A stretch of 64,000 nt of DNA, taken from assembly GCF_964355755.1 (NCBI RefSeq), contig NC_092672.1, positions 7,264,441 to 7,328,440 on the forward strand. The letters run 5' to 3'. The translations under genes were made by a program, and so were the position numbers. Under the pieces are notes generated by a model. That model worked only from the letters and a program-made list of their open reading frames with translations. It ran no database searches and had not been told where the DNA came from. This DNA comes from Antedon mediterranea (taxonomy: Eukaryota > Animalia > Echinodermata). Below are positions 508 through 63,662 of the stretch, one piece after another (positions within the stretch are counted from its first letter, which is position 1; every line of letters begins with the position of its first letter).

Positions 508-724
508 GAGTTCTACTGTTTAGCATGGACAACATTAGAAATGGACGTCGGCGACGCAAAGATTGCACGCAAGAGTAATATATTGGCAATTGGCGGTGCT
601 CGTGGTGATGTGAAACTGTTGCACCCTGAGCAATTGATTTGTTATGCTCAGCTCAGAAATTCACGCAAAACATGCTCTATCAATACATTGGTGTTCCATC
701 GTGACAAACCCACTTGGCTTTTTA
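508..724 (+). CDS. EED-like WD40 protein exon: EFYCLAWTTLEMDVGDAKIARKSNILAIGGARGDVKLLHP...LVFHRDKPTWLF
   Basis: Acceptor tttttgtag ending at 507, donor gtaaga at 725. Pattern resembles EED [34 protein letters not shown]. Confidence 0.7.
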
Positions 725-835
725 GTAAGATGGTTTTGAAATTATTTTTTTATTTAACTTATCTTAAAATCTTGCCAACTAGTAACATAATATTCCATTG
801 GCATTATTATGTTATTTAGCAACTTGTATTTTCAG

Positions 836-3285: not shown

Positions 3286-3355
3286 TCTTGAACATAGTCC
3301 GCAAAAAACATTTAACATATGGATATTGCATTGCTTCTTAGCTGTCTCCACACTA

Positions 3356-3474
3356 AAGCGTGGTTCCCACTAGCGACGCAACGTAACGCAATCTACGCAA
3401 CGTAAGAAAATGCCCTTCCAACCATTGTGTTTGCCCCGCCTGCGTTGCGTTGCGTTCTAGTGGGAACCACGCTT
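3356..3474. mobile_element. MITE family B (TIR gcgtggttcccactagcgacgcaacg / cgttgcgttctagtgggaaccacgc), 119 bp
   Basis: Terminal inverted repeats of about 26 bp are visible. A related longer copy sits at 63663-64000. Confidence 0.6.
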
Positions 3475-3477
3475 AAG

Positions 3478-3589
3478 TTTGACAAAAAAGGTGTGATGTG
3501 CCCGAATATGATAGTAATATGACAAAATCATGTCCATATATGGTCACATTACATTTTGTTGTCACATAAAGATTGATAGTGTACAGGGC
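3478..3589. mobile_element. MITE family A copy (left TIR lost, abuts MITE-B)
   Basis: Core tttgacaaaaaaggtgtgatgtgccc..atcatgtccatatatgg..cacataaagattgatagtgta shared with 12 other copies. Confidence 0.55.
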
Positions 3590-15740: not shown

Positions 15741-18700
15741 TGAGTACATGAGTAGGTTTATTACTAGTGTTAAACACTTATTTTTATTTTTATTTTATTT
15801 TTTATTTAATCGGTATAAAAAGACTCAAAATACAACTCATAGTTGAAATGAAGAGCTTACATATGAAAAAGATAATTCACATAGCCTAAACAAAGTTAAA
15901 CGAAGAAAAAACACATTAAAGCCTAAGAAACAGTAATAATTACTGTATAATTCGTTAAACTTAAAATTACTATAAAAAATGCACAAATTCTTAAATATAC
16001 AATTTTAAAAAATAGAGACTAATATTAATAATCACATTATTTTTAAACACCAATAAAATATATGTAAAATTCATTAAATTAAAAGTACAATAAAAATTGC
16101 ACAAAATTCAAATTCAAAGGATGATATTAATAATTACAAATTCTTATATTATATTTACAAATTTAAAAAATTGAATCTTATAAATCACATTTTTATAGTC
16201 CCATAAGTAGTTAAAAAAAAAAATTTAAAGCATAAAACAACCACTTGACAAAGAGACAATAGAACATACTCTTCGAAATGTCTTTAAAGGTTAATTGTCC
16301 AAATCTATTCATTATTTAAGAGTCCAATAACAGTTGGAATTGTTGATGCAGCAAGTCTTTTAGTCCGACATCGTGGCACATCAAACTTATTAACTTTACG
16401 CAAACACCTTGTCGGCTTTTCTTTTTCAGGGATCCATTCCTTAAAGCGATCCGACTTTAGCAGCCCCTTTCCAAAGTTATAAAGAAGAACCTGACGTCTA
16501 TGCTGCAATGTCTTTAACTTGAGGGTTTCAAGTGATTTTGCGTAACTAACATAGTTTTGATATCCAATAATAAGTTTTACAACACGCTTTTGGATGAATT
16601 CAAGTTGATCACTCTGTTTATTGGTGATCGAGCTATGCCAAAGAGGACTGGCATACTCAAGTAAAGGACGAATGTATGTTATAAAAGTGAAAACCAGATC
16701 ATCCTTTGGGGCTCCAAAACGCTTCAGAATGTATAGCATATATAGACGACGTGATGCCCTGGAAACGACTTCTTTAATCTGCTTGTCCCACTTGAGGTCA
16801 CTTTGCAGATGCACTCCAAGAAGTTTCACACTCTGGGATTCTTCGAGTATAACACCATCCATTTGTAACGGCTCAAATTGGGGAACATTACGCAAAAAAT
16901 GAACACGCATCACTTGAAACTTTACAGGATTTGGTGTTGCATCATTCTCCACACACCAACTGGAAAGAGCATCAAGGTTGCTTTGAATCGAACTATCTTC
17001 AGGTCTCTGTACTGAAATCACCTCGCCAATCGTCAGGTCATCAACAAACTTCCATCTATCAGGTACATTGTTGAGCAAATCATTAACCATGATAGTAAAT
17101 AGGATTGGGCCTAATTTAGTACCCTGAGGCACTCCGCACGAAATTGGTTCTGGCGCTGAGACTGAACCGCCCAACCGCACACACTGATTTCTTTGCGAGA
17201 GGAAGCTACACACCGTTGGAATGATAGAGGGCATGATATTAAGACCAATTAATTTGTCAATCAGAATTGAATGGTTGACCCGGTCAAAGGCTTTACTAAA
17301 GTCTATGGCACAAATAGTACCATACATTCCTGAGCTATCTAATCCTGACAGAAGCCTATTACAGAGTTGAACAAGGTAATGAGTCGGTGATGAACCCTTC
17401 GCATTTCCAAACTGTTGGGAATCCATAAGAGGTCTGAAATCAGTAGCTATCCAATCAGAAAGGAAGCTCTCAAAAATTCTACCAAAAACAGGCGTGATGG
17501 ATATAGGCCTATGTTCATTAGGTGTAGAAGCCTTTGGCTTTTTGGGTACAGGAGTAATGATGGCATTCTTCCAGATAGATGGGAAATTATTATCCTGGAG
17601 GCAACAATTCAATATTTTAGCGAGAGGTTGGGCAAGTTCTAAGGCAAATTCCTTAATTAATCGGAGAGGTATATCACGAGGATGCCTTGATTTATTCACA
17701 TTAATGCCCTTTAATAGTTTAAAAACTTGCCCAGGAAAAATAACAGGGGGCTTAACAGAAGGAAGAAAGGCAGGTAAATTTCGCAAATCTAATGCAGGTA
17801 AAAAAGAACAAATCCTAGCAAAATGTTTGTTGACAACATCTACAACAACATCAGGGTCACAACCAGGTTCAAGAAGTGCAGATTGCGGTTTTGATTTTCC
17901 AGCAATCCTCTGCACTTTCTTGTGCCACTTCTGGGGCTCAATTTTCCTAAGAGAAGATATAGATTCTTTATAGAAGTTTGATTTTGCCAATCTTACTTCA
18001 GAACGAACAAGCCTTCTAAAATGACGGTATCTTGTTTGGTTACCCTTTCGATAAGCACGATGTCTTTTCTCAATCATTTTTTTAATACTTTGATTAAACC
18101 AAGGTTTATCATTGTCTCTGACACGAATAACTACTGAAGGAAAAGACTTTTCGTAGGTTTCCTTAAGCACACTTTCAAATTTGGCAGCTAAATATTCAGA
18201 ACTGTCGTCCTCATAAACTATATCATCCCAGTCAATCCCAGTAATAACTTGGCCAAATGCACGCATGGACGAGTCTTTCAAGGGACGGCGAACTAGCAAC
18301 CTTCTCTTTACCGGTTTCTTTTGAATAAAATTAGGTTTTAAAAGAATGGAGGCATGGTCACTGCGACCCAGGGGAGAGAGTTTTAAAGGGGATTGGTAAA
18401 GATCAGAGATGTTTGTTAACATTTTATCAAGACATGCATCATCGCGAGTGGGAAAATCTACTACTTGTTCTAATGATGTTTGATAAAGTAGGGGGTCAAT
18501 ATCGTAGTCATTAAAGTCACCCATAATAATGAAAGCAGCATTATCCCTTACACTACGAAAATAGTCAATTCTTGAGCACAAGAACTCTGTAAGCTGTTGA
18601 TTCCGATTACAGTTAGGTGGGTAATAGACGACAATAGTGACGATTGAGAAAGAGAGGTTAATTTTTACATCAACGCATAGGCATTCAAGATCAATAGGAC

Positions 18701-19487
18701 ATGCATCATCAACTTCGTAATCATATACTTCATTAATATATAGAACAACACCACCGCCAACGCGATTACTTCTATCATTCCGAATGCATGAGAAACCCTG
18801 AACTGCCGAACACTCAGAAGAAAAATCAGAATGAAACCACGATTCTGTTATACCAGCAATATCAATGTTACTGTTTGCTAAAACTAACTCAAATTCATTC
18901 ATCTTATTGCATAACGAGCGCGCATTACACAGAAAAACACTAGGGTAAATGTTAGACCTACTAAGTTTAGCTTTACAAAAAATTGGAACAAGAATACTAG
19001 GCCCTCTCTCACCATTAATATTAGAATTATCTACTCTTCCTCCGATCTGAACAAGTATTTGCTTCCGCATATTCCGACCAGCACGGCGCCCTCTTTTACG
19101 CTTGAAAGCGGATACATTAGTTCTTGAGAAATTATAATTCAAACCCATAATTATCGGAAAAAAAAAAACAATTCAGAATAAAACAAAGTATCAAAAACAA
19201 AGAGGAATAAGTCAAGAGAAGAAAACCACGAACAGAATATAAAACTTTGATAGAAGAGGCCTTCAACAAAAATTCAAGACAAGCATTGTACAAGTCTGAA
19301 GCTGGTTATCCCCTGTGTGAATAGAGACAATTAGAGGAACCACCAACAATTTAGACAATATTGAAAGACATGAGACATACTATTAATATCTTAACATGTA
19401 CATTACGCTACAGGTATAAAACAATCAGTAAATAAATCATAAAGGGGTCATTTTTTGGAACACAATTGCACTATTAGCAATAATGAA
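15741..19487 (-). mobile_element. Full-length single-ORF non-LTR retrotransposon (CR1/L2-like clade), in NLK intron 4, same orientation as NLK
   Basis: Termini were defined by comparison with the deletion derivative at 22357-22550. It has a 339-bp 5'UTR, a 947-aa ORF and a 564-bp 3'UTR containing two ~110-bp tandem repeats. Confidence 0.7.
16305..19148 (-). CDS. LINE ORF: APE-type endonuclease + reverse transcriptase (FSKAFDRVNH, FVDD) + CR1-type C-terminal domain (LEYASPLWH)
   Basis: Uninterrupted 947-aa ORF. Endonuclease N-terminal motif CNARSLCNKMNEFELVL..ITESW. RT motifs PISITPV, SKAFDRV, FVDD. Confidence 0.85.
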   Translation of the reverse strand: MGLNYNFSRTNVSAFKRKRGRRAGRNMRKQILVQIGGRVDNSNINGERGPSILVPIFCKAKLSRSNIYPSVFLCNARSLCNKMNEFELVLANSNIDIAGITESWFHSDFSSECSAVQGFSCIRNDRSNRVGGGVVLYINEVYDYEVDDACPIDLECLCVDVKINLSFSIVTIVVYYPPNCNRNQQLTEFLCSRIDYFRSVRDNAAFIIMGDFNDYDIDPLLYQTSLEQVVDFPTRDDACLDKMLTNISDLYQSPLKLSPLGRSDHASILLKPNFIQKKPVKRRLLVRRPLKDSSMRAFGQVITGIDWDDIVYEDDSSEYLAAKFESVLKETYEKSFPSVVIRVRDNDKPWFNQSIKKMIEKRHRAYRKGNQTRYRHFRRLVRSEVRLAKSNFYKESISSLRKIEPQKWHKKVQRIAGKSKPQSALLEPGCDPDVVVDVVNKHFARICSFLPALDLRNLPAFLPSVKPPVIFPGQVFKLLKGINVNKSRHPRDIPLRLIKEFALELAQPLAKILNCCLQDNNFPSIWKNAIITPVPKKPKASTPNEHRPISITPVFGRIFESFLSDWIATDFRPLMDSQQFGNAKGSSPTHYLVQLCNRLLSGLDSSGMYGTICAIDFSKAFDRVNHSILIDKLIGLNIMPSIIPTVCSFLSQRNQCVRLGGSVSAPEPISCGVPQGTKLGPILFTIMVNDLLNNVPDRWKFVDDLTIGEVISVQRPEDSSIQSNLDALSSWCVENDATPNPVKFQVMRVHFLRNVPQFEPLQMDGVILEESQSVKLLGVHLQSDLKWDKQIKEVVSRASRRLYMLYILKRFGAPKDDLVFTFITYIRPLLEYASPLWHSSITNKQSDQLEFIQKRVVKLIIGYQNYVSYAKSLETLKLKTLQHRRQVLLYNFGKGLLKSDRFKEWIPEKEKPTRCLRKVNKFDVPRCRTKRLAASTIPTVIGLLNNE

Positions 19488-20570: not shown

Positions 20571-20668
20571 CTCTGTCTACACTATAAAAAACTATATGGT
20601 AGTGATATGCTCAAATATGGTAATGATATGACGTCATCATGTCCATATGGGCACATCACATTTTTAGT
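20571..20668. mobile_element. MITE family A copy (right end truncated, followed by a G-rich tract at 20670-20705)
   Basis: Left TIR gctctgtctacactat is intact. Core atggtagtgatatgctcaaatatggtaatgatatgacgtcatcatgtccatatggg. Confidence 0.55.
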
Positions 20669-21409
20669 TAGGAGAGGTCGGGGGAGGGGGGGGGGGGGAG
20701 AGGGTATCTCTTGATATTTAAATTCTCATAGCAATCATTGTCAGCTAAGAAGTTGAACTCCAAACATGTGTACAGGTATGAACGCATATTAATTAATGAT
20801 CATGAATGCAGTATAGTTATTTTCATTGGGGTCAATCAGACTATGCTCAGGTCAAGCATACTTTCCATTTAGTTTCAACCAATGTTCCGGTCAATCATTC
20901 TTTGTTCCATTTAGTCTTACTTATCCAGGTTAATTTTTACAAATATTTCTGATAAGAAGTCTCTTTATAACCGAGTCCTAGTATGGCTTAAAGATCGTTT
21001 CTACCCAACTGAATACCCTCCTCCCAAATGCACTGTAATGCCAACATCTCGGAATTACCTTCTTTAAGAATTTATTTCCAAGAATCAAGTTGTCTAATAC
21101 CTCTGAATTCCGTCAGAATGTTATAACTTAATTCTTTAAAAGGTAAAGAAGGGAAAAAAAAAGTCTTTAGTCATTGTAGATCATCGACTAGTACGTAGTC
21201 ATTGGATGAAGTGCTATGCAATTGCTATTAAGTCAATGACCTGTATTTGCCTATATAGTCTAGTATGATACTGTAGTTCATACTAGACTTGTATGTCCAT
21301 TAAAGCCCCATTCCCTACGTTTTTTAGATCTAATTTAAGATCACAAACTATATTTAATGTAAAAATAATACTATATGGTCCTATTGCGATAACTTTTTTC
21401 GTCTTTAAA

Positions 21410-22024: not shown

Positions 22025-22182
22025 GCTCTGTCTACACTATTAAACTAATTTGACAAAAAAGTATCATGTACCCAAAGATGACACTGATACAGTATGTCTA
22101 AATATGGTAGTGATATGACATCATCCATATATGGGCATATCACATTGTTTTGTAACATAAAGTTTGATAGTGTAGACAGAGC
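22025..22182. mobile_element. MITE family A, complete copy
   Basis: Both TIRs are present (gctctgtctacactat.. / ..tttgatagtgtagacagagc). Confidence 0.7.
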
Positions 22183-25081: not shown

Positions 25082-25589
25082 TTAAGAATGAATGATGTTA
25101 GTTATTATTTAATTACTATTTAAAGCATACAAACTTGTGTTGATTTTATTTCAATATCAGTAGAACTCAGTAATGGTTGTTATTGTATTAAACTATAATA
25201 TTGATAGAAATGCTGCAGCCATAGAATCTTCTCTCGATGTGCCTTTGTGTACACAAGACAGACCAACAATGAATTTTTTCATCCCATCTAAACACAATGA
25301 CAGTAACATCTTTAAACAAAGAAGCAGTAAGAAATTGTTTCAATCGGCTTTTACTGTACATACTGTACATATTCTCTACGATTTCTTTTTTACCTACAGT
25401 AATTCAGAAACAACTTATTACTACAACACAAAAAATGTAAAAAATTATTACATGGATATCTCCTAAGATAATCTAACCGAGTTACAGCGATTTCACATGA
25501 TAATTTGTCACTGTGTGTATACATTACTTTACAGTGTAAAACAACTCATTATAAAGCGTATTACAGACACCATACACACAATTAATTAC

Positions 25590-25800
25590 AATGCTGTTAC
25601 GTTTTGTAAGATGTCTGTGTACTGTGTGAATCGGGTATTACAATGTTGTTTGTCTTGTAAGATGTTTGTGTACTGTGTGAATTGGGTATTACAATGTTGT
25701 TTGTCTTGTAAGATATGTTTGTGTACTGTGTGAATCAAGTATTACAATGTTGTTACGTTTTGTTAAGATGTTTGTGCACTGTGTGAATCGGGTATTAGCA
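25590..25800. repeat. Minisatellite, ~58-bp unit x ~3.7 (gtgtactgtgtgaatcgggtattacaatgttgtttgtcttgtaagatgtttgt)
   Basis: Direct tandem copies are visible. It lies about 30 bp downstream of the NLK exon 3 donor, within intron 3. Confidence 0.7.
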
Positions 25801-28800: not shown

Positions 28801-30184
28801 AGCTGTGTTTTAATTGTAGGCCATTAAAAAAATTAATTAATTATAGTGACATGAGTTTTTCCCTTTTTTTAAGAGCTTTGTGATCACAAAAATATATCAG
28901 GGCTGATGAATGCAATGAATAGACTATAGTGAACAATGATACAAAATGAAGTTGGTTCATCCAATCTTGATAATAAAAATTATTTGTTTTTTTTTACACT
29001 ACAGTATTCTCTTGTATTGTGTACAATATTTTAGGCTGGCTACATTGATATTCCCAGCTAAATACTGCAAAATATTAATTTTAAAAAAGCAAAAATTAAT
29101 TTGTAGGTATGATTTTTTTTATATGGCCTTAAATGTAATTTTATAATGTCATTTTCATATAATTAATGTCCAATTTTCCATATAATTTTATTTAAACTTT
29201 AAGTATAGTTGCCATACATACAGTACACAAACTCCTCAATCCTTAATTTCAATTAAGTAAGACACAAAAATGTATACAGTACACAAATTACAAGAGGCCA
29301 TATAATAATACAGAACACCGTCAAATAATACTAAACAGTAAAACATGAATTATTCATGAGATGTGCCAAGTCAAGCAGATTAAACAGCAAAGTTATAACA
29401 GTTAACACACTGTCTAACCAATTATGATGCTTTGTGTAAATTGTAACCACCTTCATCACTATGGAAACATTACCAATTTGTCGTTTTCAGGAATGATAAC
29501 ACTGAATCAAAATTTAGTAATTACTGTCATCTTAATTCCTAGGTGAAAGTGTGAACGCACTTTTACAAGCATGGAGGAATTTGTAACAAAAATAATTTTT
29601 ACTCAAAATTATAAAAATTTAATATCAATAATCATACAGATTTTATTTTATTATTACTATAGTTTTGAAGAAGCAAATATACACAGTGTATTTATTATTG
29701 AAATGGTAGAAATGATAAAAATGATGAAAAAATGTAAAGAAACACTTTTTAAATTTACAGTATAACAAATTTACAATAAATTACTACAGTAGTTACCACC
29801 ATGTTATGCCATTATATTATAACTATAACAATTATAGTATTATACTGTAATTGTGTAGATAAGGTGGAAAAAGATCATCAGGGAAACCTTTGGTTATTCC
29901 CTACCAGATGAAAGTGGTAATTTAGAAGTCCAAAGTACATCACAACAATGCATCTAGTAAGCATGCAATATTAGCCCACACTGGTGGTATATTATACAAT
30001 TACCATCTTTCAATAAACAGGGTTAATCAGGGGACAGTGCATAATTACCTATTTATTAGAATTAACACGTTTTAATTTAAGACAGCTAGTCTATTGGTTA
30101 CTTCATATTTAAATTTGTTGTGGCAAGCCACCTTTATTCACCACATACACAAACATAGGAAAAAATGTATTAAATAAAGCTTAC

Positions 30185-30314
30185 ATTATCATGTTTAAAG
30201 AAGAATAACATCTTAAGTTCTCTGTAGACTCTCTTTGAGGAGATAACATTTTGGAAAACATTTGGCATCTTCTTGAGGGCCACTCTTCTACCATCCCGAG
30301 GGTCTGTCACAGAC
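30185..30314 (-). CDS. NLK: NLK exon 2: (W)SVTDPRDGRRVALKKMPNVFQNVISSKRVYRELKMLFFFKHDN
   Basis: Acceptor cttttcatag, donor gtaagc. Near-identical to NLK SVTDPRDGKRVALKKMPNVFQNLVSCKRVFRELKMLCFFKHDN. Confidence 0.9.
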
Positions 30315-34002: not shown

Positions 34003-34337
34003 AGTTCTGTCTAATTATCAATTTTACAAACAAAAGTGTGATGTGCCCAAATATGGTAGTGATGTGCCCAAATATGGTAGTGATGTGCCCAAATATGGTA
34101 GTGATGTGCCCAAATATGGTAGTGATGTGCCCAAATATGGTAGTGATGTGCCCAAATATGGTAGTGATGTGCCCAAATATGGTAGTGATGTGCCCAAATA
34201 TGGTAGTGATGTGCCCAAATATGGTAGTAAGTGATATGACAGTATGCCAAAAATATGGTAGTGATACATCATCATCATGTCCATATATGGGCACATCAAA
34301 TGTTTTGTCATATAAAGTTTGATATTGTAGACAGAGC
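34003..34337. mobile_element. MITE family A copy expanded by an internal 21-bp tandem array
   Basis: TIR-like ends gttctgtctaattatcaa / tttgatattgtagacagagc. Nine perfect copies of gtgatgtgcccaaatatggta lie inside it. Confidence 0.65.
34039..34227. repeat. 21-bp microsatellite-like tandem repeat x9 inside a MITE
   Basis: Perfect repeats. They generate spurious ORFs in all frames (34011-34495). Confidence 0.9.
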
Positions 34338-34943
34338 TTTATTTTAATGAGTTCAAAGTTAACACAAATATCAGAAAATTGAACTAGATGAATTATTAAA
34401 TGTAAATTGTATTCACCAATCATGTGTAAAGAGTAAAGATTAGAATGATAACACCTACTCCACCCATTTCCATTTAGACAACAACATAAAATCATTGTTC
34501 AAATCTGATTGACAATTAAAAAAAATGACATGTTACAATTACATATTAATAATAAAGATGATACAGCACTAGTTCAAAGTTTAATTAATTCACTGGTTAT
34601 CAGTCATGAAAACTGTTCAATGTCAGAATGGATTTATGCAAGTTGTAGAACAGCAGGAAAAGACCCTGAACAAAGCTTACTATATGAACAACAAAAACAC
34701 TAATAAATTAGATAATGTAGGCACTGTTTTGGTTTTTTTAAACATGACATCTCCCTCAGGGAGTCAGGGTAGAGTTTTCTCATTTTTTTTTGGTCACAAT
34801 TTCCAAATGCTTTTTACTGTGTATCTGTGTCCTCATCACACACCTACATGTAATTTGAAACACCATTGTGTACTTACTTTATTCCGGATATACTGATTTT
34901 AGATTTATATTTAGTTTAGTATTACTATACTACAGTATACAAA

Positions 34944-35508
34944 TGGGTCTAAAATTGGGTATTGCTAAACACCGCAAACACCGCAAACCTAAAAAAAAAC
35001 ATAGCAAACCACATCGAACCAACATAAATTTCTACTGTTAACTACTTATTTTTGGGGTAAAACATCACTTTTTGGTCAAAAATGATTGCTAAACCCTGCA
35101 AACCTCCAAAAAAATATAGCAAACCCCATCGAACCAACATAAAAGTGATTGAATCATGTAGTGTACAACCCACTGGGTATACAGTATCCATGTAAAAAAA
35201 ATATTAAATTTCTACTGTTAACTACTTATTTTTGGGGTAAAACATCACTTTTTGGTCAAAAATGATTGCTAAACCCTGCAAACCTCCAAAAAAATATAGC
35301 AAACCCCATCGAACCAACATAAAAGTGATTGAATCATGTAGTGTACAACCCACTGGGTATACAGTATCCATGTAAAAAAAATATTAAATTTCTACTGTTA
35401 ACTACTTATTTTTGGGGTAAAACATCATTTTTTGGTCAAAAATGATTGCTAAACCCCGCAAACCTCCAAAAAAATATACTGTAGCAAACCCCACCAAACC
35501 AACATAAA
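34944..35508. repeat. 181-bp satellite array A (~3 units)
   Basis: Direct repeats of the unit aaatttctactgttaactacttatttttggggtaaaacatcactttttggtcaaaaatgattgctaaaccctgcaaacctccaaaaaaatatagcaaacccc... Confidence 0.8.
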
Positions 35509-35509
35509 A

Positions 35510-35636
35510 GTGACAAATATGGTAGTAAGTGATATGACAGTATGCCAAAAATATGGTAGTGATACATCATCATCATGTCCATATATGGGCACATCAAATG
35601 TTTTGTCATATAAAGTTTGATATTGTAGACAGAGCT
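35510..35636. mobile_element. MITE family A partial copy (duplicate of the right half of 34003-34337)
   Basis: Identical to 34230-34337. Confidence 0.6.
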
Positions 35637-36242
35637 TTATTTTAATGAGTTCAAAGTTAACACAAATATCAGAAAATTGAACTAGATGAATTATTAAATG
35701 TAAATTGTATTCACCAATCATGTGTAAAGAGTAAAGATTAGAATGATAACACCTACTCCACCCATTTCCATTTAGACAACAACATAAAATCATTGTTCAA
35801 ATCTGATTGACAATTAAAAAAAATGACATGTTACAATTACATATTAATAATAAAGATGATACAGCACTAGTTCAAAGTTTAATTAATTCACTGGTTATCA
35901 GTCATGAAAACTGTTCAATGTCAGAATGGATTTATGCAAGTTGTAGAACAGCAGGAAAAGACCCTGAACAAAGCTTACTATATGAACAACAAAAACACTA
36001 ATAAATTAGATAATGTAGGCACTGTTTTGGTTTTTTTAAACATGACATCTCCCTCAGGGAGTCAGGGTAGAGTTTTCTCATTTTTTTTTGGTCACAATTT
36101 CCAAATGCTTTTTACTGTGTATCTGTGTCCTCATCACACACCTACATGTAATTTGAAACACCATTGTGTACTTACTTTATTCCGGATATACTGATTTTAG
36201 ATTTATATTTAGTTTAGTATTACTATACTACAGTATACAAAT

Positions 36243-37080
36243 GGGTCTAAAATTGGGTATTGCTAAACACCGCAAACACCGCAAACCTAAAAAAAAACAT
36301 AGCAAACCACATCGAACCAACATAAATTTCTACTGTTAACTACTTATTTTTGGGGTAAAACATCACTTTTTGGTCAAAAATGATTGCTAAACCCTGCAAA
36401 CCTCCAAAAAAATATAGCAAACCCCATCGAACCAACATAAAAGTGATTGAATCATGTAGTGTACAACCCACTGGGTATACAGTATCCATGTAAAAAAAAT
36501 ATTAAATTTCTACTGTTAACTACTTATTTTTGGGGTAAAACATCACTTTTTGGTCAAAAATGATTGCTAAACCCTGCAAACCTCCAAAAAAATATAGCAA
36601 ACCCCATCGAACCAACATAAAAGTGATTGAATCATGTAGTGTACAACCCACTGGGTATACAGTATCCATGTAAAAAAAATATTAAATTTCTACTGTTAAC
36701 TACTTATTTTTGGGGTAAAACATCATTTTTTGGTCAAAAATGATTGCTAAACCCCGCAAACCTCCAAAAAAATATACTGTAGCAAACCCCACCAAACCAA
36801 CATAAAAGTGATTGAATCATGTAGTGTACAACCCACTGGGTATATTCATGTAAAAAAAATATTAAATTTCTACTGTTAACAACTTATTTTGGGGGTAAAA
36901 CATCATTTTTTTGGTCAAAAATGATTGCTAAACCCCGCAAACCTCCAAAAAACCATAGCAAACCCCACCGAACCAACATAAAAGTGATTGAATAATGTAG
37001 TGTACGACCCACTGGGTATATACATTATTAAATTTATACTGTTAACTACTTTTTTGGGGATAAAACATCATTTTTTGGTT
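36243..37080. repeat. 181-bp satellite array B (~4.5 units)
   Basis: Same unit as array A. Confidence 0.8.
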
Positions 37081-37262
37081 AAAAATTAATAATCATTTTT
37101 GACCAAAAAATGATGTTTTACCCTAAAAATAAGTAGTAAATTTTTTTTTTACATTGATATACCCAGTGGGTTGCACACTACATGATTCAATCACTTTTAT
37201 GTTGGTTCGGTGGGGTTCTATGTTTTTTTGGAGGTTTGCGGGGGTTTGCGGTGTTTAGCAAT
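37081..37262. repeat. Inverted copy of the satellite unit, forming a ~190-bp-arm palindrome centred near 37085
   Basis: 37081-37262 is the reverse complement of the unit (rc gttaattttaggggtattgctaaacaccgcaaacccc), so the array ends in a long hairpin. Confidence 0.75.
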
Positions 37263-38822
37263 ACCCCTAAAATTAACTTCTCTAATAATTAATTGTAAAA
37301 AAATGAAGATTCCTTACAAAATACAAAGGTTAATTCATGATATAAATAGACCACAATAATACTGTTCTATAATGTTTAACTATATACAGTATATGGTTTC
37401 TATACTTGATGGTTTTAAGTTTAACTGAACAGGTCCTATCTTAGCTTGTACTGTACCATTGGTGGATGATTAATTATTAGTACTGTATGCTTATATACTT
37501 GGATACTGTAAATAATTCTGAACTTATTTTTCCATAGCTTTTGAAAAGCTAAAAAAAACAATCTGTTGTAATAATATATTCACTGTAAGCTATAGTGAGT
37601 GTAGTTAGTAGGTTACACATTGTATAACAGTTGTATTGTATAGTAAAGGTATCAGTAAATCCTCTATGCTGTTTAATTACACCCACCACACAACAGACTA
37701 CGTTTTACTTTTAAATAGAGACTGTGTGCTTTGGTCTAACCACAAAAATTTAAGATTGTGAACAAAGAAATTACAAGGATAGACTCTTGGTTACTAAGTA
37801 AAAGACTTTGGACCTTTTGGTGATAAAAATACTATAGTGACAATGTTTTAAATATAGAAAATTGTACAATATAAAAATTTGAAAAATATGTTTAGGTGTA
37901 TGATTCTATATTATTTGTCTATTATGTTTCATTCTTTTTACATAAATTAAAACTTCGTTTTGATCCTCATTTAACTTGTATGTAAATTAGGGAAGGGCTT
38001 ATCAAATATTGATCATGCAAAATCTCATTTTTGAAAAAGATACAGTACAATGTTAATCTATTCAAGAACTAAATCCCTCTTTCAAAGGCTTACCAAATAT
38101 CCTTAAAAGGAAAATACAGTTAGTACACTATGTGGAAATACAGTACTATACAGTACTACAGTAGTAAATGGTAACTTCACATTTTTTGAAAATATAAAAT
38201 ACAGTATCATTATCAATAATAATTATTATAGTGTTAATTAATGATGCTGTACTTAATGTATATTGGTACTGTACAATAGTTAAAAAAAAAAATCTACTTT
38301 GAACAATTTACATACAATTCATAAGCTGTATACTACAGCTCTATATTAATTTAGTATTTTTGAAAACAGAATTTAATTTTCTAGTACGACATTTACTGTA
38401 AATATATAAAAAAGTCTACAGAAAAGAGATTGCAAAAATAGAACACATCTAGACAATTAACACAGTATCTGATTACTACTGGAGGCTTAAGAACCCCCTT
38501 GGAGCTGGGATGGATAGATCATTAGGTGTTAACATTTTTGCTCAACACAGGATGCTATTATAAATCAGGCCTTAACAAAGCAAGGACAGATTGAATGCAT
38601 TACAGTACCTATACTGTAAAAAAAGTGATTTGGATAGAAGTTTCATAAAATTTTACTGTTATTATACTGTCTGTAGTATAGTACTACTACTGGTAGTGGT
38701 AGTAGTAAGTGTATACCATGGACAAATTACTATTTCTTTGCTATACAGAGTACTGTGAACATGGAAAAAACAAGAAGCCCTTTAACATTGTCCAAGCAAC
38801 TTATAGTAAGAGTCTTCTAGCT

Positions 38823-41516: not shown

Positions 41517-42760
41517 TACTACTACAACAACACAATGCTTCTATGGGTTTCTTGATTCTCGCTAGACTACATCCAAAATCTCCTTACCAACTTACAAAAA
41601 GAAAACATGTGGTTTGTTTTAAGTCGAAAGCAGGAACTTCCACACATCCTCTAGCCCTGGCTTTGTGTGGCCTACTCATGGCAACAAAAATCTATTTAGT
41701 TTTCCCAACAAAAAAACACTTCATTATTGAATAGTCAAATCTTGAATCTTTGGTCTTTTGTTTTGAACAATGTATTGCTAAGTATTTTTTAAACCATTTT
41801 TTTTCTTTTTTTTGTGCTACTTATTGTGTCAACAGGATAATGATATGTAACTGTAATGTAGCATACACTACAGTATTATTATTTTCACATTTACACACAA
41901 CATTTAAAAAAAACATTAAAACAAAACAGTAAATTAAAACTTGATTATTAATATTAGAATGTGTATACATTTCAGTTTTAAAAATTTAAATAAATAACTT
42001 GATGATTTTCTTTAAATAAAAAAGACTAATTTGATTATATAAATTAGGAAATACATTTCACATAGTACAACAAGAGTACAACAAAAATGACTTAATAAAG
42101 TTGTCTATATTTTGTCTAAATACAGAAAGAGTTTTAATAAACTGAATAGTAGTAGTACAGTAGCATCAAGTAGAAACTATTTATTTAGTAAATGACTATT
42201 TTTGAATTTCATTTTCATAAAAGAATATAAAAATAAGTATTCTACAATAAAATTATTCCAAAAACTATAAATAATTATATGGAAGTATTTTATTTATTTC
42301 ATACTTGACATTGTATAGTACGTTGTCAATCAGCTTTTGTTTAAGCATCAACCAGCTGATTTTTAAAGGTCTCTTCAAAACACAATTATTTTCAAAAAGG
42401 TGACCATGTACTTTTAAAGGCCATATTTTGATCCATTTAATTCAATATAAAAACAGTAACTACAATTATTATTTAGATTACAGCTGTATTATAATTTTTT
42501 TTATCATACATCAGATACTAAACTTGCAGTTCTATTTTATAAAGATGCAAACAAAGAGAATTGTCGGCAATTCAGTCACCGTTTTGTTGGACGTCCACAC
42601 GTCACCAACTTTCAATTGATATATGAACATGTTAAAATAATATTCATTTAAACGTAATGTAATTAAAATGTATGTATATAAAGTAAAATTTTGTTCAATA
42701 TTCATCAAAAATTTATATATGAAGTTAAAATAAACAAAGTTGAAGGAACAAAGGACTTAC

Positions 42761-42963
42761 CATACAACACCAAACGCACCATAACCGATCGGTCTGTCGG
42801 GCTCGAAATCTGCCCGTGTTGTCGACGTTGATGATGGTGTTGTGGTCGACGAAATGCCATTTCTTTGCTGATAAAATGCTTGTGAAGCATTTAGAGCACT
42901 TTGTTCGTGTAGAATACCACGAAAGTTCACATTCTGTCTTACTCTGGAACCACAGACAGCCAT
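42761..42963 (-). CDS. NLK: NLK exon 1 (start codon at 42963): MAVCGSRVRQNVNF...TTRADFEPDRPIGYGAFGVV(W)
   Basis: ATG reading MAVCGSR (human MSLCGAR). Glycine loop GYGAFGVVW. Donor gtaagt at 42755-42760. Confidence 0.8.
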
Positions 42964-46187: not shown

Positions 46188-46317
46188 CTATTGAATAGAA
46201 AATATTTAGCATACAGTCGATCTCCATCGAATAGGAAATATTTAGCATAATCTGGTTAAAGTAGATGTGACTTCTTATGCCAAATAGCATTCTACATTTT
46301 CTCTTATATCTCTTTAC

Positions 46318-46673
46318 CTCTTATCTTTACATCCCGTAACAAACATGCTCCTAAGAGGGTCATCACCATGAATACAAGTAACATTCCAAGTATGTCCTCG
46401 GAACACTTGCTTTATGTTTTTTGTCTCAACGTCAAAGAATTTAACTGAGAAGCTCTCTTGGAAGCCTGCGACACCAAACCCGCAGACAATATAATTGTTC
46501 ATGACCTCCATACAAGTCGGTATTCCTGAGCCTCCTACAAAGGCATGTACAAGGCTTAGATACCTAGGCCCTGGTGCAGGCTGATAAATGTATAGTCCTG
46601 TATTTGTTATTAACGCTACATTGGTGGCTTGCTGGTTTTGATCCAACATTGGAAAAAGTTTCATATCTTCAAT
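46318..46673 (-). CDS. F-box/WD40 gene exon 7: IEDMKLFPMLDQNQQATNVALITNTGLYIYQPAPGPRYLSLVHAFVGGSGIPTCMEVMNNYIVCGFGVAGFQESFSVKFFDVETKNIKQVFRGHTWNVTCIHGDDPLRSMFVTGCKDK
   Basis: Acceptor ttttttttgtacag, donor gtaaag. Long open frame with WD signature FRGHTWNVTC. Confidence 0.65.
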
Positions 46674-46779
46674 CTGTACAAAAAAAAAATAAAGAAGAAT
46701 TATAATTGAATGCCATATCATATCTTGTATACTGTGTAACATTTATTCATAAGAATGAAGATTATTTGATAAAGTAGAA

Positions 46780-49417: not shown

Positions 49418-49722
49418 CTGAAAAAATGATAATACATAGAAAGAATTATAGTAAGCATCAACTGAACAATACTATCATTAACCTCATACACATAAAAACA
49501 TTATGGGTTTGTCAACATAGTGTATGGATGTACTGTATTTGAAAAAGATGATGTTAACTGTGAAATATACACTAGTGGCCAGATTTAGACTTTTGATTTT
49601 TATTTAAATCACTTAGATTTGATCAGACATTGTTATGTTGATCTGCATCACAAAAAGGTTACCTCTGGTTAGAGGGAGTGTCTAATGCGGGGTCTCAATT
49701 GGAGTATACTGAATTTTCATAC

Positions 49723-50103
49723 CAAATCTGATATGAAAGTTTCAAGAAATCCGAGTGTCTTGTTTTTTTCTTCATCATCTTCATTGTTCATCTTTCTTCT
49801 CTTCCAAGCATTCTGATTTGTCAGTCTCTCACTTGTGCTAGCTTCATTCTGATTGGTCAGTCTCTCACTTGTGCTAGCTTCATTCTGATTGGTCACTCTC
49901 TTGCTTTCATTTCTATTCTGTAATCTTTTTCCTTCCAGTAAGGTTTCAACAATTGTAAATGGTGTGTAGTTCACTTGGGCATTTATATCAACTGTGTTCT
50001 TTGTGTTCTTAGGATCTGATTTGTGATCAGAGATTCCAGGTTCAGTCTTTTTTTCTTTCAGTTCTTTTTTCCAAGACACTCTAAACTTGTCTAAGTCATC
50101 CAT
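49723..50103 (-). CDS. F-box/WD40 gene exon 1 (start codon at 50103): MDDLDKFRVSWKKELKEKK...NEDDEEKNKTLGFLETFISDL; contains 12-aa tandem repeats RLTNQNEASTSE
   Basis: ATG-initiated open frame ending at donor gtatga. A 36-bp DNA tandem repeat lies at ~49800-49900. Confidence 0.6.
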
Positions 50104-51442: not shown

Positions 51443-53062
51443 ATGGCAAAGTTGATATTTAAAAGAAGATATAATGCTTCTTTAGAAGAAGCCCAGAATG
51501 CGGTGAGATCAAATGAGTATCCCGCCGCTAAGTACGCTAGGTTCCTCCAGGTGAGGAATAGAAGGGCTAGGCCTAGAAACAGGGGGTGTCCTTATGTCAG
51601 AAGAAACGCTAATGTTAACCCAACTTGTAAGTTAGGCGGCCTACACGAATTAGATACACTTATAAAAACGGAAAACAAATCAGCTGATATCAATTATTGT
51701 CATTTTGATCATGAATTAGGCCTAGGCCTAGGCCTAAATACAAATGATATGCCTATCATAATTATAAGTAGTGATAGTAGTAGTGATTGTGACATTATTA
51801 TAAGTAGACCTAGTACCAATGATGGTGATAGGCCCAGTGAATATCAAATGTTGTCTCCAAATACAAATGATATGCCTATCATTATAAGTAGTGATAAGAG
51901 TAGTGATAGCGACATCATTATTAGTATTAGCAGTGATGGTGATAGTAGAAGTAGGCCTAGTGAAGACCAAATGTTGTCTCCAAATACAAATGATATGCCT
52001 ATCATGATAAATAGTGATAACAGTAGTGATAGTGACATCATTATTAGTATTAGCAGTGATGGTGATAGTAGTAGTTGGCCTAGTGAAGACCAAATGTTGT
52101 CTCGAAATACAAATGATATGCCTATCATGATAAATAGTGATAAGAGTAGTGATAGTGACATCATTATTAGTATTAGCAGTGATGGTGATAGTAGTAGTAT
52201 TAGTAGTAGTGGTACTATGCCCAATAGTAAGAGTAGCAGTAGTGGCGATAGTACTAGTCGTAGTATTAGTAGCAACAGCATTGGCAGTAGCAGCATAGGA
52301 GAAAATAGTAGCACTGTTGTAGTCGTAGGAAATGGTGATGTTTTGTTTCATTTTCCAGGTAGTGATAACAATTCTAACGACATTTCAAATGAAAATTTTG
52401 AATTTGAATCTAATAAAGAATATTTTAATTCATTAATTAATCGTGAAAAAATATCTGAAAATCCATGGGCACATTTTGAATCACAATCAGTCAAAGATCA
52501 TATGGTAGAATTTTTATGTAATATTCGATCTGAACTCATTCGTTATGAATACATAATCGATTATGATATTGTTCATCGTAGCCTTACAATTATAGAAAAT
52601 GTACTAATCTGTGATAACACAGCATTTAAACTTGGAGATCTCGAGGAATTGGCAATTGCATCATTTTGCCTTGCATTGAAATGTGCTGAACGATACCAAT
52701 CTAAACACATCATCCCTTATGCGTGTGACCGCCTCCGGAATCTTGGCTTCTTCAATCCTAAAAAAATTGCCCAAATAGAATTTAAAATATTAAAGATAGT
52801 AAACTTTAATATCAATAGTGTCACTTGTCTTGATTTTGTTCACATTTATTGCGATATTGCTATCAGTAAAGCTACAACCAACAACAACAAACGTAGAATA
52901 GAAAGAGTAAGACACGAATCTGTCAAATATTTGATTACAAATAAAATATCTCTTACAACAGTAAAGCCATCCGCAATAGCTTACTTAATAATTAACGCAA
53001 TTCTGGAGAAACTAGAAATACAAGACTCATTCTATTTTGAGAATAATGACGATAGTTCTTAA
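51443..53062 (+). CDS. Intronless cyclin-box (cyclin N-terminal domain) protein, 539 aa, with four ~40-aa tandem repeats carrying SIM-like cores (DIIISISSDGD) and a Ser-rich linker
   Basis: Single ORF. The C-terminal ~200 aa carries a cyclin-fold pattern (MVEFLCNIRSELIRYEYII, LAIASFCLALKCAE, KKIAQIEFKILKIVNFNI). 120-bp DNA repeats lie at 51760-52200. Confidence 0.65.
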   Translation: MAKLIFKRRYNASLEEAQNAVRSNEYPAAKYARFLQVRNRRARPRNRGCPYVRRNANVNPTCKLGGLHELDTLIKTENKSADINYCHFDHELGLGLGLNTNDMPIIIISSDSSSDCDIIISRPSTNDGDRPSEYQMLSPNTNDMPIIISSDKSSDSDIIISISSDGDSRSRPSEDQMLSPNTNDMPIMINSDNSSDSDIIISISSDGDSSSWPSEDQMLSRNTNDMPIMINSDKSSDSDIIISISSDGDSSSISSSGTMPNSKSSSSGDSTSRSISSNSIGSSSIGENSSTVVVVGNGDVLFHFPGSDNNSNDISNENFEFESNKEYFNSLINREKISENPWAHFESQSVKDHMVEFLCNIRSELIRYEYIIDYDIVHRSLTIIENVLICDNTAFKLGDLEELAIASFCLALKCAERYQSKHIIPYACDRLRNLGFFNPKKIAQIEFKILKIVNFNINSVTCLDFVHIYCDIAISKATTNNNKRRIERVRHESVKYLITNKISLTTVKPSAIAYLIINAILEKLEIQDSFYFENNDDSS

Positions 53063-61483: not shown

Positions 61484-61684
61484 GTTGAGGCGTTTCGTAA
61501 TGTAAACACAGCTATACATGGTTTTAGAACAGTGAGATTGGTTGATAATCACCGACCAATTCAGCCCATCAACAATCGAATCGTTTACAGAAGTTTCGAA
61601 ACATCCGATGCGTCTTACGCATGCGTAAATAAGGTCTACCTCATGTTAGCTGTTTTAATGGTTTGCTTAAGCAACTTTGTTTAG
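61484..61684 (+). CDS. alpha-carbonic anhydrase terminal exon: VEAFRNVNTAIHGFRTVRLVDNHRPIQPINNRIVYRSFETSDASYACVNKVYLMLAVLMVCLSNFV*
   Basis: Acceptor ttgttaacag. NHRP..PLNGR-like motif. Hydrophobic C-terminal tail before stop TAG at 61682-61684. Confidence 0.7.
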   Translation, partial: VEAFRNVNTAIHGFRTVRLVDNHRPIQPINNRIVYRSFETSDASYACVNKVYLMLAVLMVCLSNFV

Positions 61685-63662
61685 CACCACGTCACGTAAA
61701 CTTTAGCTGTCTATGACGCGCACAAATGAAATAGTTTATGTAAATTGTATTTTGAAAGCAGTAGATTAAGAAACTCTGTTTAGCATCACGTCACTTAAAG
61801 TTTAGCTGTCTATGACGCGCACAAATGAAATAATTTATGTAAATTGTATCTCGAAAGCAGTAGATTTTAGTAAGAATTAGGACTATAGTGTAACCACTTC
61901 AATGTACTAAAAGATGTATTGTCCCCCTGAAAAAATAAATCTTAACAACATTTTTGTTTAATATGCCATTTTAATGTAACATAATAGTTATCCACTTTGA
62001 CCAAAATTTGGATAAAAAAAAAGGAAATTACCTGAAAAAAAACTGTAATTGACAGCAAAAAAAAAAATGGTGAAATTGGCTGCCAGCCAATTGATTTTTG
62101 GTTGAATTTAACCATTTTATTTGGTCATTTTATAAGTGAAAACATTATTTTTTTTATTTTCTTTTCTACGGAAGTGATTAACTTCATTAAAACTACAAAA
62201 TAACATATTTATAGTCCGATTTAATGAATCTTCATTTTTCATGTTTTTGAGGACAACACATCTTTAAACACAAGAACATGTTCCAATGATTGTTCGACGA
62301 TAATGAAAATATACAATAATAAATAATTCTTGTAGCTTAACTTCTCTGGATTTTCTGTTTTCATGTAGCAAACATAACAGCAATATTGTATTTCGATTTG
62401 TTGGTTATGTCCGTATCTAAAAGTTTTAAAGTTCATGTAAATTGTAGAGATTTTAGTAAAAATTATGACTATTAGTGTAACCAATTCAATGTACTTAAAC
62501 ATAAGAACATGTTTCAATGATTGTTTGACGATAATGAAAATATACAATAATAAATAATTCTTGTAGCTTAACTTCTCAGGATTTTGTGTATAGCAATATT
62601 TTATTTTTAATTTGTTGGTTATGTTCGTATCTAAAAGCATCGTGTCAGTATTTCAAGGTGAATTCCAAAATTGTGTGTGATTTAAGCAAGGCAATCTAAC
62701 AACAGGATTTGTCGCAGCAGCCAGACATAAAATCAAATGACGTCTATTACGAGTTCCTATCTTGGCAAGGTGAGCCCAGTGTCCTTTTGTTAGATTTCCT
62801 TGGTTTAAGCCTGATTATTAGTGGGAATTCCCACTTGGACGCGATGGACTATAATGCAAATTGTCGTTTCCTTTTTCGTCTTTGTGGGAACATGTACTTG
62901 TACGGGGCTGGCTAATCTAGGTTGACCGAAATAAGTAACAAGATAAATATTTTGGCACACGTGGCGTTTTATAAGTTCAGACAAAATTTGAAAAAAAATG
63001 GTGGACTAACATGAAAAAGACAATAAATACACATTTGGGGATAGTCCAGGGACTGGCAAGAACTTCGGTGCCTATATTTCGAGGAATAAGTTTTCTTTAT
63101 GAAATAAAAATATTGCTTTTCCTAATGGAATTGATTATAGAAAGGCTTGTATAGATAATAAGATCCTCTGTAATAAAGCTTTTTAGTCAACGAAATAAAT
63201 ACGTTATTTTAATATACATATCTATTATACATTAATAATACTCTTTCTACAGATGAAAATTATGTCGAAACATAATGGGAATAATTACAGAAATAAAGAA
63301 TTAAAAACAAAACTGATGTTCGATGGCAGGATATCAGGGTTTTGACTAATCACCTGTAATACGTGTAGGAGTAATTCGTTTCCTGTGGTTTTGAGTTCGG
63401 TGGCCAGTAGTTTACCGTTTAAAATAAATATTAATGCTCCATACTTTTTGTAATACAAATAATCTTTGGTTTTACACCAAGTAGGCCTACCAACAAAGAC
63501 TGGGTTACATGTAGGCCTAGCAGTGTTCCTATTGCAGCGCTTTCATCCCGAACAACAGACCATCGTCACTGTGCCACTGTGGTAATAATCATACAAACAC
63601 TAGAAGCATCACATATCCTGTAATTAAAATGGATAAGACGATTTTTTGATTTTTTTTTAAAG

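Follow-up and report, generated by a model that had tools for sequence, protein, structure and literature searches.

Two nested mobile-element relics linked by a 1298-bp tandem duplication in an NLK intron of the crinoid Antedon mediterranea

Introduction

Within about 3.3 kb, an intron of the NLK gene of Antedon mediterranea holds perfect 21-bp repeats, an exact tandem duplication of more than 1 kb, ~180-bp repeats and a long palindrome. This raises the question whether we are dealing with one exotic structure or with several familiar ones laid over each other. We addressed it in a window of 64 kb, that is, the whole stretch of DNA analysed. The flanking NLK exons lie at 42760-42801 and 30182-30313 on the minus strand, as located with an NLK query sequence, with a 12.4-kb intron between them. 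They enclose 34003-37262, and the original prediction was thus right to place the structure inside an NLK intron. The layout it proposed was also sound as a whole (a MITE enclosing a 21-bp array, tandem duplication at a higher order, repeats of ~180 bp and, at the end, a palindrome with inverted-repeat bounds), whereas several coordinates and sizes had to be corrected (Table 1).

We consider it likely that this intron records three ordinary repeat processes, one on top of the other, namely the expansion of a 21-bp motif within a MITE, the insertion of a foldback element and a 1298-bp tandem duplication. The locus contains a small MITE and a 1-kb foldback-type transposon, two nested mobile-element relics that are linked by this duplication. 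The whole structure is ordinary repeat biology rather than a novel kind of system, and chance is ruled out as the source of all the features described here.

Table 1. Features of the composite repeat locus (positions are those of the window)
Feature	Position	Strand	Remarks
MITE-A copy (Tourist-like MITE)	34003-34338	+	336 bp; BLAST and alignment to other copies in the window
Perfect 21-bp minisatellite GTGATGTGCCCAAATATGGTA x 9.1	34038-34228	+	TRF: 100% matches, 0 indels
Copy 1 of the 1298-bp tandem duplication	34216-35513	+	0 mismatches against 35514-36811
Copy 2 of the 1298-bp tandem duplication	35514-36811	+	0 mismatches against 34216-35513
Novel junction	35513/35514	+	...CATAAAAGTGA joined to CAAATATGGTAG...; no microhomology
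Left target-site duplication CTAAAATT	34949-34956; second copy 36247-36254 via the duplication	+	8 bp; abuts terminus
Right target-site duplication CTAAAATT	37267-37274	+	8 bp; abuts terminus
23-bp terminal inverted repeat GGGTATTGCTAAACACCGCAAAC	34957-34979; 36255-36277; 37244-37266	+; +; -	each 23/23
Truncated left-end foldback fragment	34957-35513	+	L1, L2, L3 and 69 nt of L4; created by duplication
Intact foldback-type non-autonomous transposon	36255-37266	+	1012 bp; 23/23 termini
Direct unit L1	36255-36382		intact element
Direct unit L2	36383-36562		intact element
Direct unit L3	36563-36742		intact element
Direct unit L4	36743-36923		intact element
Direct unit L5	36924-37088		intact element
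Inverted unit R1	37089-37266		intact element
Near-spacerless palindrome (L5 against R1)	36924-37266		centre 37088/37089; inverted pairs and fold

Perfect 21-bp repeats lie within an old MITE copy

The MITE family to which the left part of the locus had been assigned, MITE-A, proved real: BLAST and alignment gave at least 12 further copies or fragments across the 64 kb. Complete copies measure 115-156 bp and bear AGCTCTGTCTAC... termini and terminal inverted repeats. Two of them, at 22026 and 56052, are flanked by TAA/TAA, and the left flanks of the remaining ones are degenerate. Small size, terminal inverted repeats and a high copy number agree with Tourist-like MITEs (those mobilised by PIF/Harbinger). 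That group has a 3-bp TWA target-site duplication, for which TAA/TAA at the two copies is a candidate. The copy at this locus matches the ends of the family (AGCTCTGTCTAC... and ...GTAGACAGAGCT) and is ~78-84% identical to other copies. Its left end is degenerate and its flanks read CAG versus TTA, so that the target-site duplication is not preserved; the copy is an old one.

It exceeds the usual length because of its internal array. Nine perfect 21-bp repeats had been placed at 34039-34227, and the array is indeed real and perfect, although its limits differ from these and it comprises 9.1 copies. Other members of the MITE-A family carry one to three occurrences of this motif. It represents one strand of the internal stem of the MITE, and its complement lies at ~34280-34300 in the MITE fold. 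It seems that this stem motif of the old MITE expanded recently to nine perfect copies, most likely through replication slippage.

The 1298-bp tandem duplication has a blunt, non-homologous junction

The block was originally described as 1299 bp long, starting at 34230 and repeated at 35529-36827. Its tandem arrangement and exactness were borne out, but its length is 1298 bp and its limits are those given in Table 1. The identity of the two copies ends abruptly at either outer edge. Each copy begins at the last 21-bp repeat and ends 69 bp inside unit L4 of the foldback element described below, and combines the left 557 bp of this element with 741 bp of upstream intron. In copy 1 the MITE tail (34216-34338) is followed by 610 bp of unique intron (34339-34948), the 8-bp left target-site duplication and the left part of the element (34957-35513). 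A 96-aa ORF of the unique block gave no Pfam match.

The junction between the copies (in short form AAAAGTGA joined to CAAATATGG) is blunt and coincides with no transposon end. When the contexts of the breakpoints were compared, no aligned homology was found between them, and an AGTGA(T) match lies 5-6 nt out of register and is not compatible with the junction. Unequal crossing-over and a microhomology-based origin were therefore rejected. A blunt junction away from any transposon terminus points to end-joining or a homology-independent template switch, rather than to transposition or unequal crossing-over. The duplication, with no differences between its copies, would be very recent, and it would postdate the 1012-bp element. 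The earlier view that a satellite continues past the duplicated block has to be abandoned in favour of an order in which the element was there first and its left part was afterwards copied, along with the adjoining intron, by the duplication.

Perfect copies may also suggest that the duplication, and perhaps the 21-bp array of nine copies as well, is an artefact of assembly and that the true locus contains one block. It is plausible to suspect this where 1298 bp show 0 differences beside a perfect 21-bp array, and where a long palindrome and 180-bp repeats make the region difficult for assemblers; nevertheless, the edges of the duplication do not match repeat-unit boundaries, and 35513/35514 joins non-homologous sequences. 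Such a junction is beyond what repeat collapse or expansion can produce, so reads (or a chimeric read) carrying it would be required. We regard an artefact as improbable, and a genuine tandem duplication remains our preferred reading.

The ~180-bp repeats form a foldback-type element

The intact element consists of five direct and one inverted ~180-bp units, which are 90-99% alike in the unit matrix. Every unit opens with the terminus-like sequence ATTGCTAAAC and is closed by a short hairpin, ATCATTTTT...AAAAATGAT, which adjoins the centre of the palindrome. The two arms are highly asymmetric (5:1), and a middle domain is absent. The motif GCAAACC is concentrated here, as 20 of its 23 occurrences in the window lie inside the element, two per unit and 21 bp apart. 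A repeat is present where the original prediction saw a 181-bp satellite with three units per duplicated block, but the unit measures 180 bp, and in each block a terminal unit of 128 bp is accompanied by two complete ones and by 69 bp of a fourth.

An inverted last unit does exist, although not at 37081-37262, and together with L5 it forms a hairpin whose centre had been put at ~37085 and whose arms had been estimated at ~190 bp; they measure ~165-178 nt. The arms 36924-37088 and 37089-37266 are 91% identical over 158 aligned positions. For 36860-37275, treated as single-stranded DNA, the predicted fold is a long, nearly continuous hairpin of -139.6 kcal/mol, as compared to -41.7 +/- 4.4 for shuffled sequences (z = -22).

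The array is bounded by inverted repeats, as proposed, but these are perfect 23-bp termini with outer limits at 34957 and 37266, not at 34944 and 37262. Elsewhere in the 64-kb window GGGTATTGCTAAACACCGCAAAC was not found with up to three mismatches. The terminal complementarity ends exactly at the 8-bp CTAAAATT, which is AT-rich (the genome has 32% GC) and for which a chance match of two 8-mers of the window has a probability of 7.6e-5. Perfect 23-bp termini directly flanked by this repeat indicate that the array is one transposon insertion and not a local satellite; the suspected resemblance to foldback elements was well founded, while the satellite label was not. The insertion and the duplicated target are plain from the sequence itself. 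Points against this reading are the AT-richness of CTAAAATT, the asymmetry of the arms, the missing middle domain and the finding of no second insertion in the 64-kb window.

One might still propose that the ~180-bp array arose in place, that the inversion of its last unit goes back to hairpin-primed or fold-back replication, and that the flanking CTAAAATT copies are a coincidence. The hairpin at the unit ends, situated by the palindrome centre, could prime such synthesis, and no other copy of the unit was found in the 64-kb window or in the metagenome, viral and protein collections searched. What makes this scenario very unlikely is that an 8/8 direct repeat stands precisely where the 23/23 complementarity stops (p ~8e-5), and that only the terminal units, as opposed to the internal ones, start with GGGT and carry an extra CCGCAAAC repeat, which is expected of transposon ends and not of an arbitrary array edge.

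Database searches yielded no relatives of the transposon. A second copy was not found elsewhere in the 64-kb window, which contains one insertion and its duplicated fragment only. The 180-bp unit had no match in metagenomes, and in viral contigs it gave two 19-bp chance matches without extension. The unit ORFs, concatenated and used as a protein query, retrieved no relatives. Exact-product look-ups were without a match for the junction-spanning ORF (35449-35793, minus strand), the unique block, the unit ORF, a 539-aa ORF and three Antedon LINE proteins. As a separate observation, a LINE ORF in the window shares 99% identity with a protein of Antedon mediterranea.

Coding potential of the arrays was rejected, as the longest ORF within them has 49 aa (57 aa among ORFs overlapping an edge). 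The same applies to a functional RNA: the tRNA search of the region found none, and Rfam gave sub-threshold generic miRNA-hairpin and snoRNA matches only (best score 34.9 bits, gathering score 90).

Classification and comparison with known elements

Inverted arms built of tandem subrepeats, termini abutting a target-site duplication and the lack of capacity to encode a transposase are all features of foldback elements, and all were found here. Classical satellite DNA, with its long homogeneous arrays at one or more loci that stand apart from mobile elements, did not fit, since within the 64-kb window the 180-bp unit is confined to a bounded element of 5+1 units. Tandem repeats borne by a Helitron or Helentron, which have neither terminal inverted repeats nor a target-site duplication, were dismissed because perfect termini and an 8-bp duplication are present. 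The termini of hAT elements (Ac, hobo, Hermes, Tol2) are short repeats starting with 5'-YARNG. The 8-bp CTAAAATT agrees with the hAT target-site duplication, but the terminus GGGTA... does not follow this consensus, and we rejected the assignment.

The element shows the 8-bp target-site duplication of Mutator/MULE elements including the Foldback clade (8-10 bp), and likewise the 5'-GG terminus (GGGTATTGC) and 8-9 bp duplication of Merlin. Judging by these sequence features, the Merlin or Mutator/Foldback superfamily appears to match best the 8-bp duplication and the 5'-GG(G) terminus. In Merlin, a conserved terminal 5'-GG, target-site duplications of 8 or 9 bp, terminal repeats up to 462 bp, internal tandem repeats in some families and records from echinoderms have been described (PMC8101967); the match to our element is restricted to the end features. 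In their autonomous forms, Merlin elements encode an IS1595/IS1016-like DDE transposase and Mutator elements a MULE transposase; the 64-kb window holds no transposase. By analogy with related elements, a transposase supplied in trans would recognise the GGGTATTGC... termini and the repeated GCAAACC motifs.

The closest analogues are Tetris of Drosophila virilis and tandem-repeat-containing MITEs. Tetris (Dias et al. 2014, PMC4079207) is likewise a non-autonomous, non-coding foldback with ~200-bp tandem repeats inside its terminal inverted repeats and target-site duplications of 8-10 bp (8 bp here), and many of its copies are rearranged. Its ~220-bp internal repeats share 37 bp with the terminal domain, at ~80%, while the corresponding stretch in Antedon spans 53 bp at 89%. 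On the other hand, Tetris has final, tandem-repeat, inner and middle domains, whereas the Antedon element is made of end-like units only, in 5:1 arms; the two show no sequence similarity, and the host here is a crinoid.

Mutator-type foldbacks (Drosophila FB; Meloidogyne Tm1, with 8-10 bp target duplications, PMC3169594; Aedes Muta1, a foldback-type MULE with 8/9-bp duplications, PMC5225508) resemble the element in their composite inverted termini of tandem subrepeats, variable arm length, target duplications of 8-10 bp and large numbers of non-autonomous, MITE-like derivatives. They differ from it in subrepeats of 12-15 bp (10-31 bp in FB) versus 180 bp and in a usual target duplication of 9 bp versus 8 bp. 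In the bivalve element DTC84/pearl, the body consists of up to ~5 core repeats, and junction palindromes have been proposed to drive copy-number change (PMC3879986). DTC84 is also a short non-autonomous element of a marine invertebrate, and its unit-junction palindrome may be likened to the hairpin closing each unit here. However, its short inverted repeats lie in separate flanking cassettes, while in Antedon the repeats themselves are the termini, and its putative target-site duplication is AA instead of 8 bp.

Among echinoderms, TU elements of Strongylocentrotus purpuratus (Liebermann et al. 1983, cited in PMC4079207) are foldback elements whose long inverted termini consist partly of tandem repeats; they reportedly have an 8-bp target duplication, outer-domain repeats of ~15 bp and middle segments. 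The Antedon transposon falls structurally within the known class of foldback elements.

Proposed order of events

The foldback element probably inserted ~620 bp downstream of the MITE and duplicated the 8-bp target, and the pre-insertion site would read ...GGGTCTAAAATTAACTTC... (also written ...ACAAATGGGTCTAAAATTAACTTCTCT...). The subsequent duplication left the present locus with a single right end but two left ends of the element (34957...37266). An origin of the duplication in alternative transposition of this element (such as the sister-chromatid or reversed-ends kind reported for maize Ac, PMC3744419) could in principle be suggested by this set of ends, by the transposon end inside the duplication and by the terminus-like ATTGCTAAAC sites of internal units. 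It is extremely unlikely, however, and was rejected on the position of the junction, which lies ~68-69 nt inside L4 and within the MITE array, coincides with neither a true nor a pseudo terminus, and bears no new target-site duplication. Our preferred reading is still that of an insertion followed by end-joining or template switching.

Implications

The remarks in the original prediction on fragility and assembly collapse are reasonable; perfect repeats beside a long palindrome are prone both to mis-assembly and to real instability. It is a rather doubtful, further-reaching idea that the element belongs to a currently active crinoid foldback family of pure reiterated ends, whose spacerless palindrome makes the intron a hotspot of instability. 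If so, this would account for the three tandem duplications, perfect or nearly so, that lie within 3.3 kb at scales of 21, 180 and 1298 bp. With its two left ends and its single right end, the locus would then be a composite able to mobilise 741 bp of host intron together with the MITE tail, and the modelled ~170-nt hairpin in NLK pre-mRNA could feed small-RNA or RNA-editing pathways.

The locus opens no long-standing question. It illustrates how two unrelated elements, rearranged by a later segmental duplication, can come to look like one exotic structure. In practical terms, it is a case for repeat annotation and would add two families to a crinoid repeat library, one foldback-like and new, the other of Tourist-like MITEs. 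Crinoids are an under-studied group, and the NLK intron offers a clean, datable case of an end-built transposon seeding tandem repeats.

The repeat array in the NLK intron carries the signature of a transposon

Two nested mobile-element relics and a recent segmental tandem duplication make up the locus studied here. Its location in an intron of the minus-strand gene NLK, proposed in the original prediction, was borne out by tblastn with a human NLK sequence as the query, which placed it between two of the NLK exons (Table), in an intron of 12.4 kb. The window is eukaryotic DNA with a G+C content of 32%. Two ORF fragments show weak similarity to WD40 / beta-propeller, in every case below the Pfam cut-off, and are probably exons of adjacent genes.

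The array within this intron had been described as a satellite of 181-bp units. It is indeed built of repeats, with a period of 180 bp, but its inverted 23-mer termini and the 8-bp direct repeat identify it as a transposon rather than a satellite. No further site of the 23-mer was found in the window with up to three mismatches. Terminal complementarity stops exactly at the start of CTAAAATT, the direct repeat extends neither way, and the chance of a match between two 8-mers from the window is 7.6e-5. As inverted ends with an abutting direct repeat are the signature of cut-and-paste insertion, the sequence argues for such an event, with an 8-bp target-site duplication.

When one copy of the 1298-bp duplication is removed, a 1012-bp element identical to the intact copy remains. 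With each unit taken to start at the terminus-like ATTGCTAAAC, this foldback element consists of five direct units (L1-L5) and one inverted unit (R1), 90-99% identical in alignment. Two features, GGGT at the start and an additional CCGCAAAC repeat, are confined to the two outermost units, which are thus the true ends. Every unit finishes, at the unit junction, with a hairpin of 9-bp stem. The motif GCAAACC appears twice per unit, exactly 21 bp apart, and 20 of its 23 occurrences in the window lie within 34957-37266; these motifs are plausible as putative transposase-binding sites. The same 21-bp period is found in the unrelated MITE minisatellite, which is probably a coincidence.

The arms join at 37088/37089, essentially without a spacer, and 36860-37275 as single-stranded DNA is predicted to fold into one long, nearly continuous hairpin (-139.6 kcal/mol vs -41.7 +/- 4.4 for shuffles, z = -22). 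The inverted last unit and the hairpin had thus been recognized correctly, while the arms are of about 165-178 nt and not 190. ORFs in the foldback arrays reach at most 49 aa inside and at most 57 aa if they overlap an edge; neither a tRNA nor, at threshold, an Rfam family was found in them, and the metagenome, viral-contig and protein collections searched contained no relatives of the 180-bp unit.

Features of the locus and of the rest of the window
Feature	Position (strand)	Size	Remark
NLK exon	42760-42801 (-)		PDRPIGYGAFGVVW
NLK exon	30182-30313 (-)		
MITE-A copy	34003-34338		
21-bp array	34038-34228	9.1 copies	unit GTGATGTGCCCAAATATGGTA; 100% matches (TRF)
Duplication, first copy	34216-35513	1298 bp	
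Duplication, second copy	35514-36811	1298 bp	
Direct repeat CTAAAATT	34949-34956 (copied to 36247-36254); 37267-37274	8 bp	immediately outside 23-mer ends
23-mer GGGTATTGCTAAACACCGCAAAC	34957 (+); 36255 (+); 37244-37266 (-)	23 bp	
Foldback element, truncated left fragment	34957-35513	557 bp	
Foldback element, intact	36255-37266	1012 bp	
L1		128 bp	direct; internal deletion
L2, L3		180 bp each	direct; one base different
L4		181 bp	direct
L5		165 bp	direct
R1		178 bp	inverted
Palindromic MITE-like element	~3355-3474	~120 bp	ends AAGCGTGGTTCCCACTAG / CTAGTGGGAACCACGCTT
MITE-A copy	~3478-3583		
MITE-A copy	~20665-20720		truncated on right
Tandem repeat	25585-25797	53 bp x 4.1	87%
Tandem repeat	49809-49901	36 bp x 2.6	96%
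Tandem repeat	51736-52199	123 bp (41 codons) x 3.8	89% identity
Tandem repeat	61667-61866	99 bp x 2	92%
LINE ORF	16305-19148 (-)	947 aa	intact
ORF	49717-50103 (-)	128 aa	
ORF	51443-53062 (+)	539 aa	uninterrupted
WD40 / beta-propeller fragment	46314-46742 (-)		
WD40 / beta-propeller fragment	541-819 (+)		

A very young tandem duplication has copied part of the element

Base-by-base comparison revealed zero differences between the two copies over exactly 1298 bp, and identity is lost immediately beyond them; the duplication must thus be very young. The original prediction had the duplication itself, with a length of 1299 bp and edges about 14-16 bp off; its overall structural picture was right and its errors were small. 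The block starts 13 bp before the 21-bp array ends and runs 69 bp into L4; the transposon thus contributed 557 bp to it, and the rest consists of the MITE tail, the left target-site duplication and a 610-bp stretch of unique intron.

No microhomology is present at the junction (...CATAAAAGTGA|CAAATATGGTAG...), nor could the two parental contexts be aligned, and the junction falls at neither a true nor an internal pseudo terminus of the foldback element. For these reasons we favour an origin by end-joining or a homology-independent template switch. Unequal crossing-over is disfavoured by breakpoint contexts without alignable homology, and aberrant transposition by the position of the junction away from any terminus. 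As repeat collapse or expansion by an assembler could not create a non-homologous junction, we think, from the sequence, that the duplication is real.

The 21-bp array is a recent expansion in an old MITE

MITE-A has at least 12 more copies or fragments in the window; full-length copies are of 115-156 bp with termini AGCTCTGTCTACACTATCAAAC..., and TAA at both flanks of two complete copies suggests a Tourist-like (PIF/Harbinger-type) MITE. The copy studied here is, judging by its sequence, old: it is ~78-84% identical to other copies, has a degenerate left end and has not kept its target-site duplication. The 21-bp unit is an ordinary piece of the internal stem, present in 1-3 degenerate copies in other family members. 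Nine perfect repeats, as originally predicted, inside an old copy point to a recent expansion, which probably proceeded by replication slippage at a stem-forming motif, given the computed MITE fold.

Elsewhere, one MITE-A copy directly adjoins a second kind of small palindromic element, and another is followed by a G-rich run, GGGGGAGGGGGGGGGGGGGAGAGGG, unusual for sequence of 32% GC.

Other repeats and ORFs in the window

The remaining tandem repeats of the window are mostly 85-96% matched, with a 41-bp, two-copy 20-bp repeat as the sole exception. The NLK-intron locus stands out for recent events, with its perfect 21-bp array, the single-base difference between L2 and L3 and the perfect 1298-bp pair. 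The 36-bp repeat lies inside the 128-aa ORF and encodes a repeated TNQNEASTSERL. The 123-bp repeat lies in the Ser/Asp/Ile-rich 539-aa ORF, for which neither a Pfam match nor an exact product on record was found; long antisense ORFs overlap it, as is typical of repeats.

Another NLK intron holds, on the same strand as NLK, a non-LTR retrotransposon ORF that encodes both an endonuclease and a reverse-transcriptase domain. Its product shares 99% identity with an NCBI protein of the feather star Antedon mediterranea, the 6 differences marking the latter as a paralogous copy; the host is accordingly this crinoid or a very close relative, and the LINE family is young and possibly active.

Relation to known transposons

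In Merlin elements the terminal 5'-GG is conserved and target duplications measure 8-9 bp; some contain internal tandem repeats, and echinoderm records exist (PMC8101967). For hAT, the target-duplication length fits, but the terminus does not. Foldback-type MULEs have target duplications of 8/9 bp (Muta1; PMC5225508) or 8-10 bp, mostly 9 (Tm1; PMC3169594), yet their subrepeats are much shorter than the 180-bp units described here. Bivalve tandem-repeat MITEs (DTC84) share with our element a palindrome at unit junctions (PMC3879986). The closest published counterpart is Tetris of Drosophila virilis, a non-autonomous foldback element with ~220-bp tandem repeats inside its terminal repeats, 37 bp in common between tandem repeats and terminal domain, and target duplications of 8-10 bp (PMC4079207).
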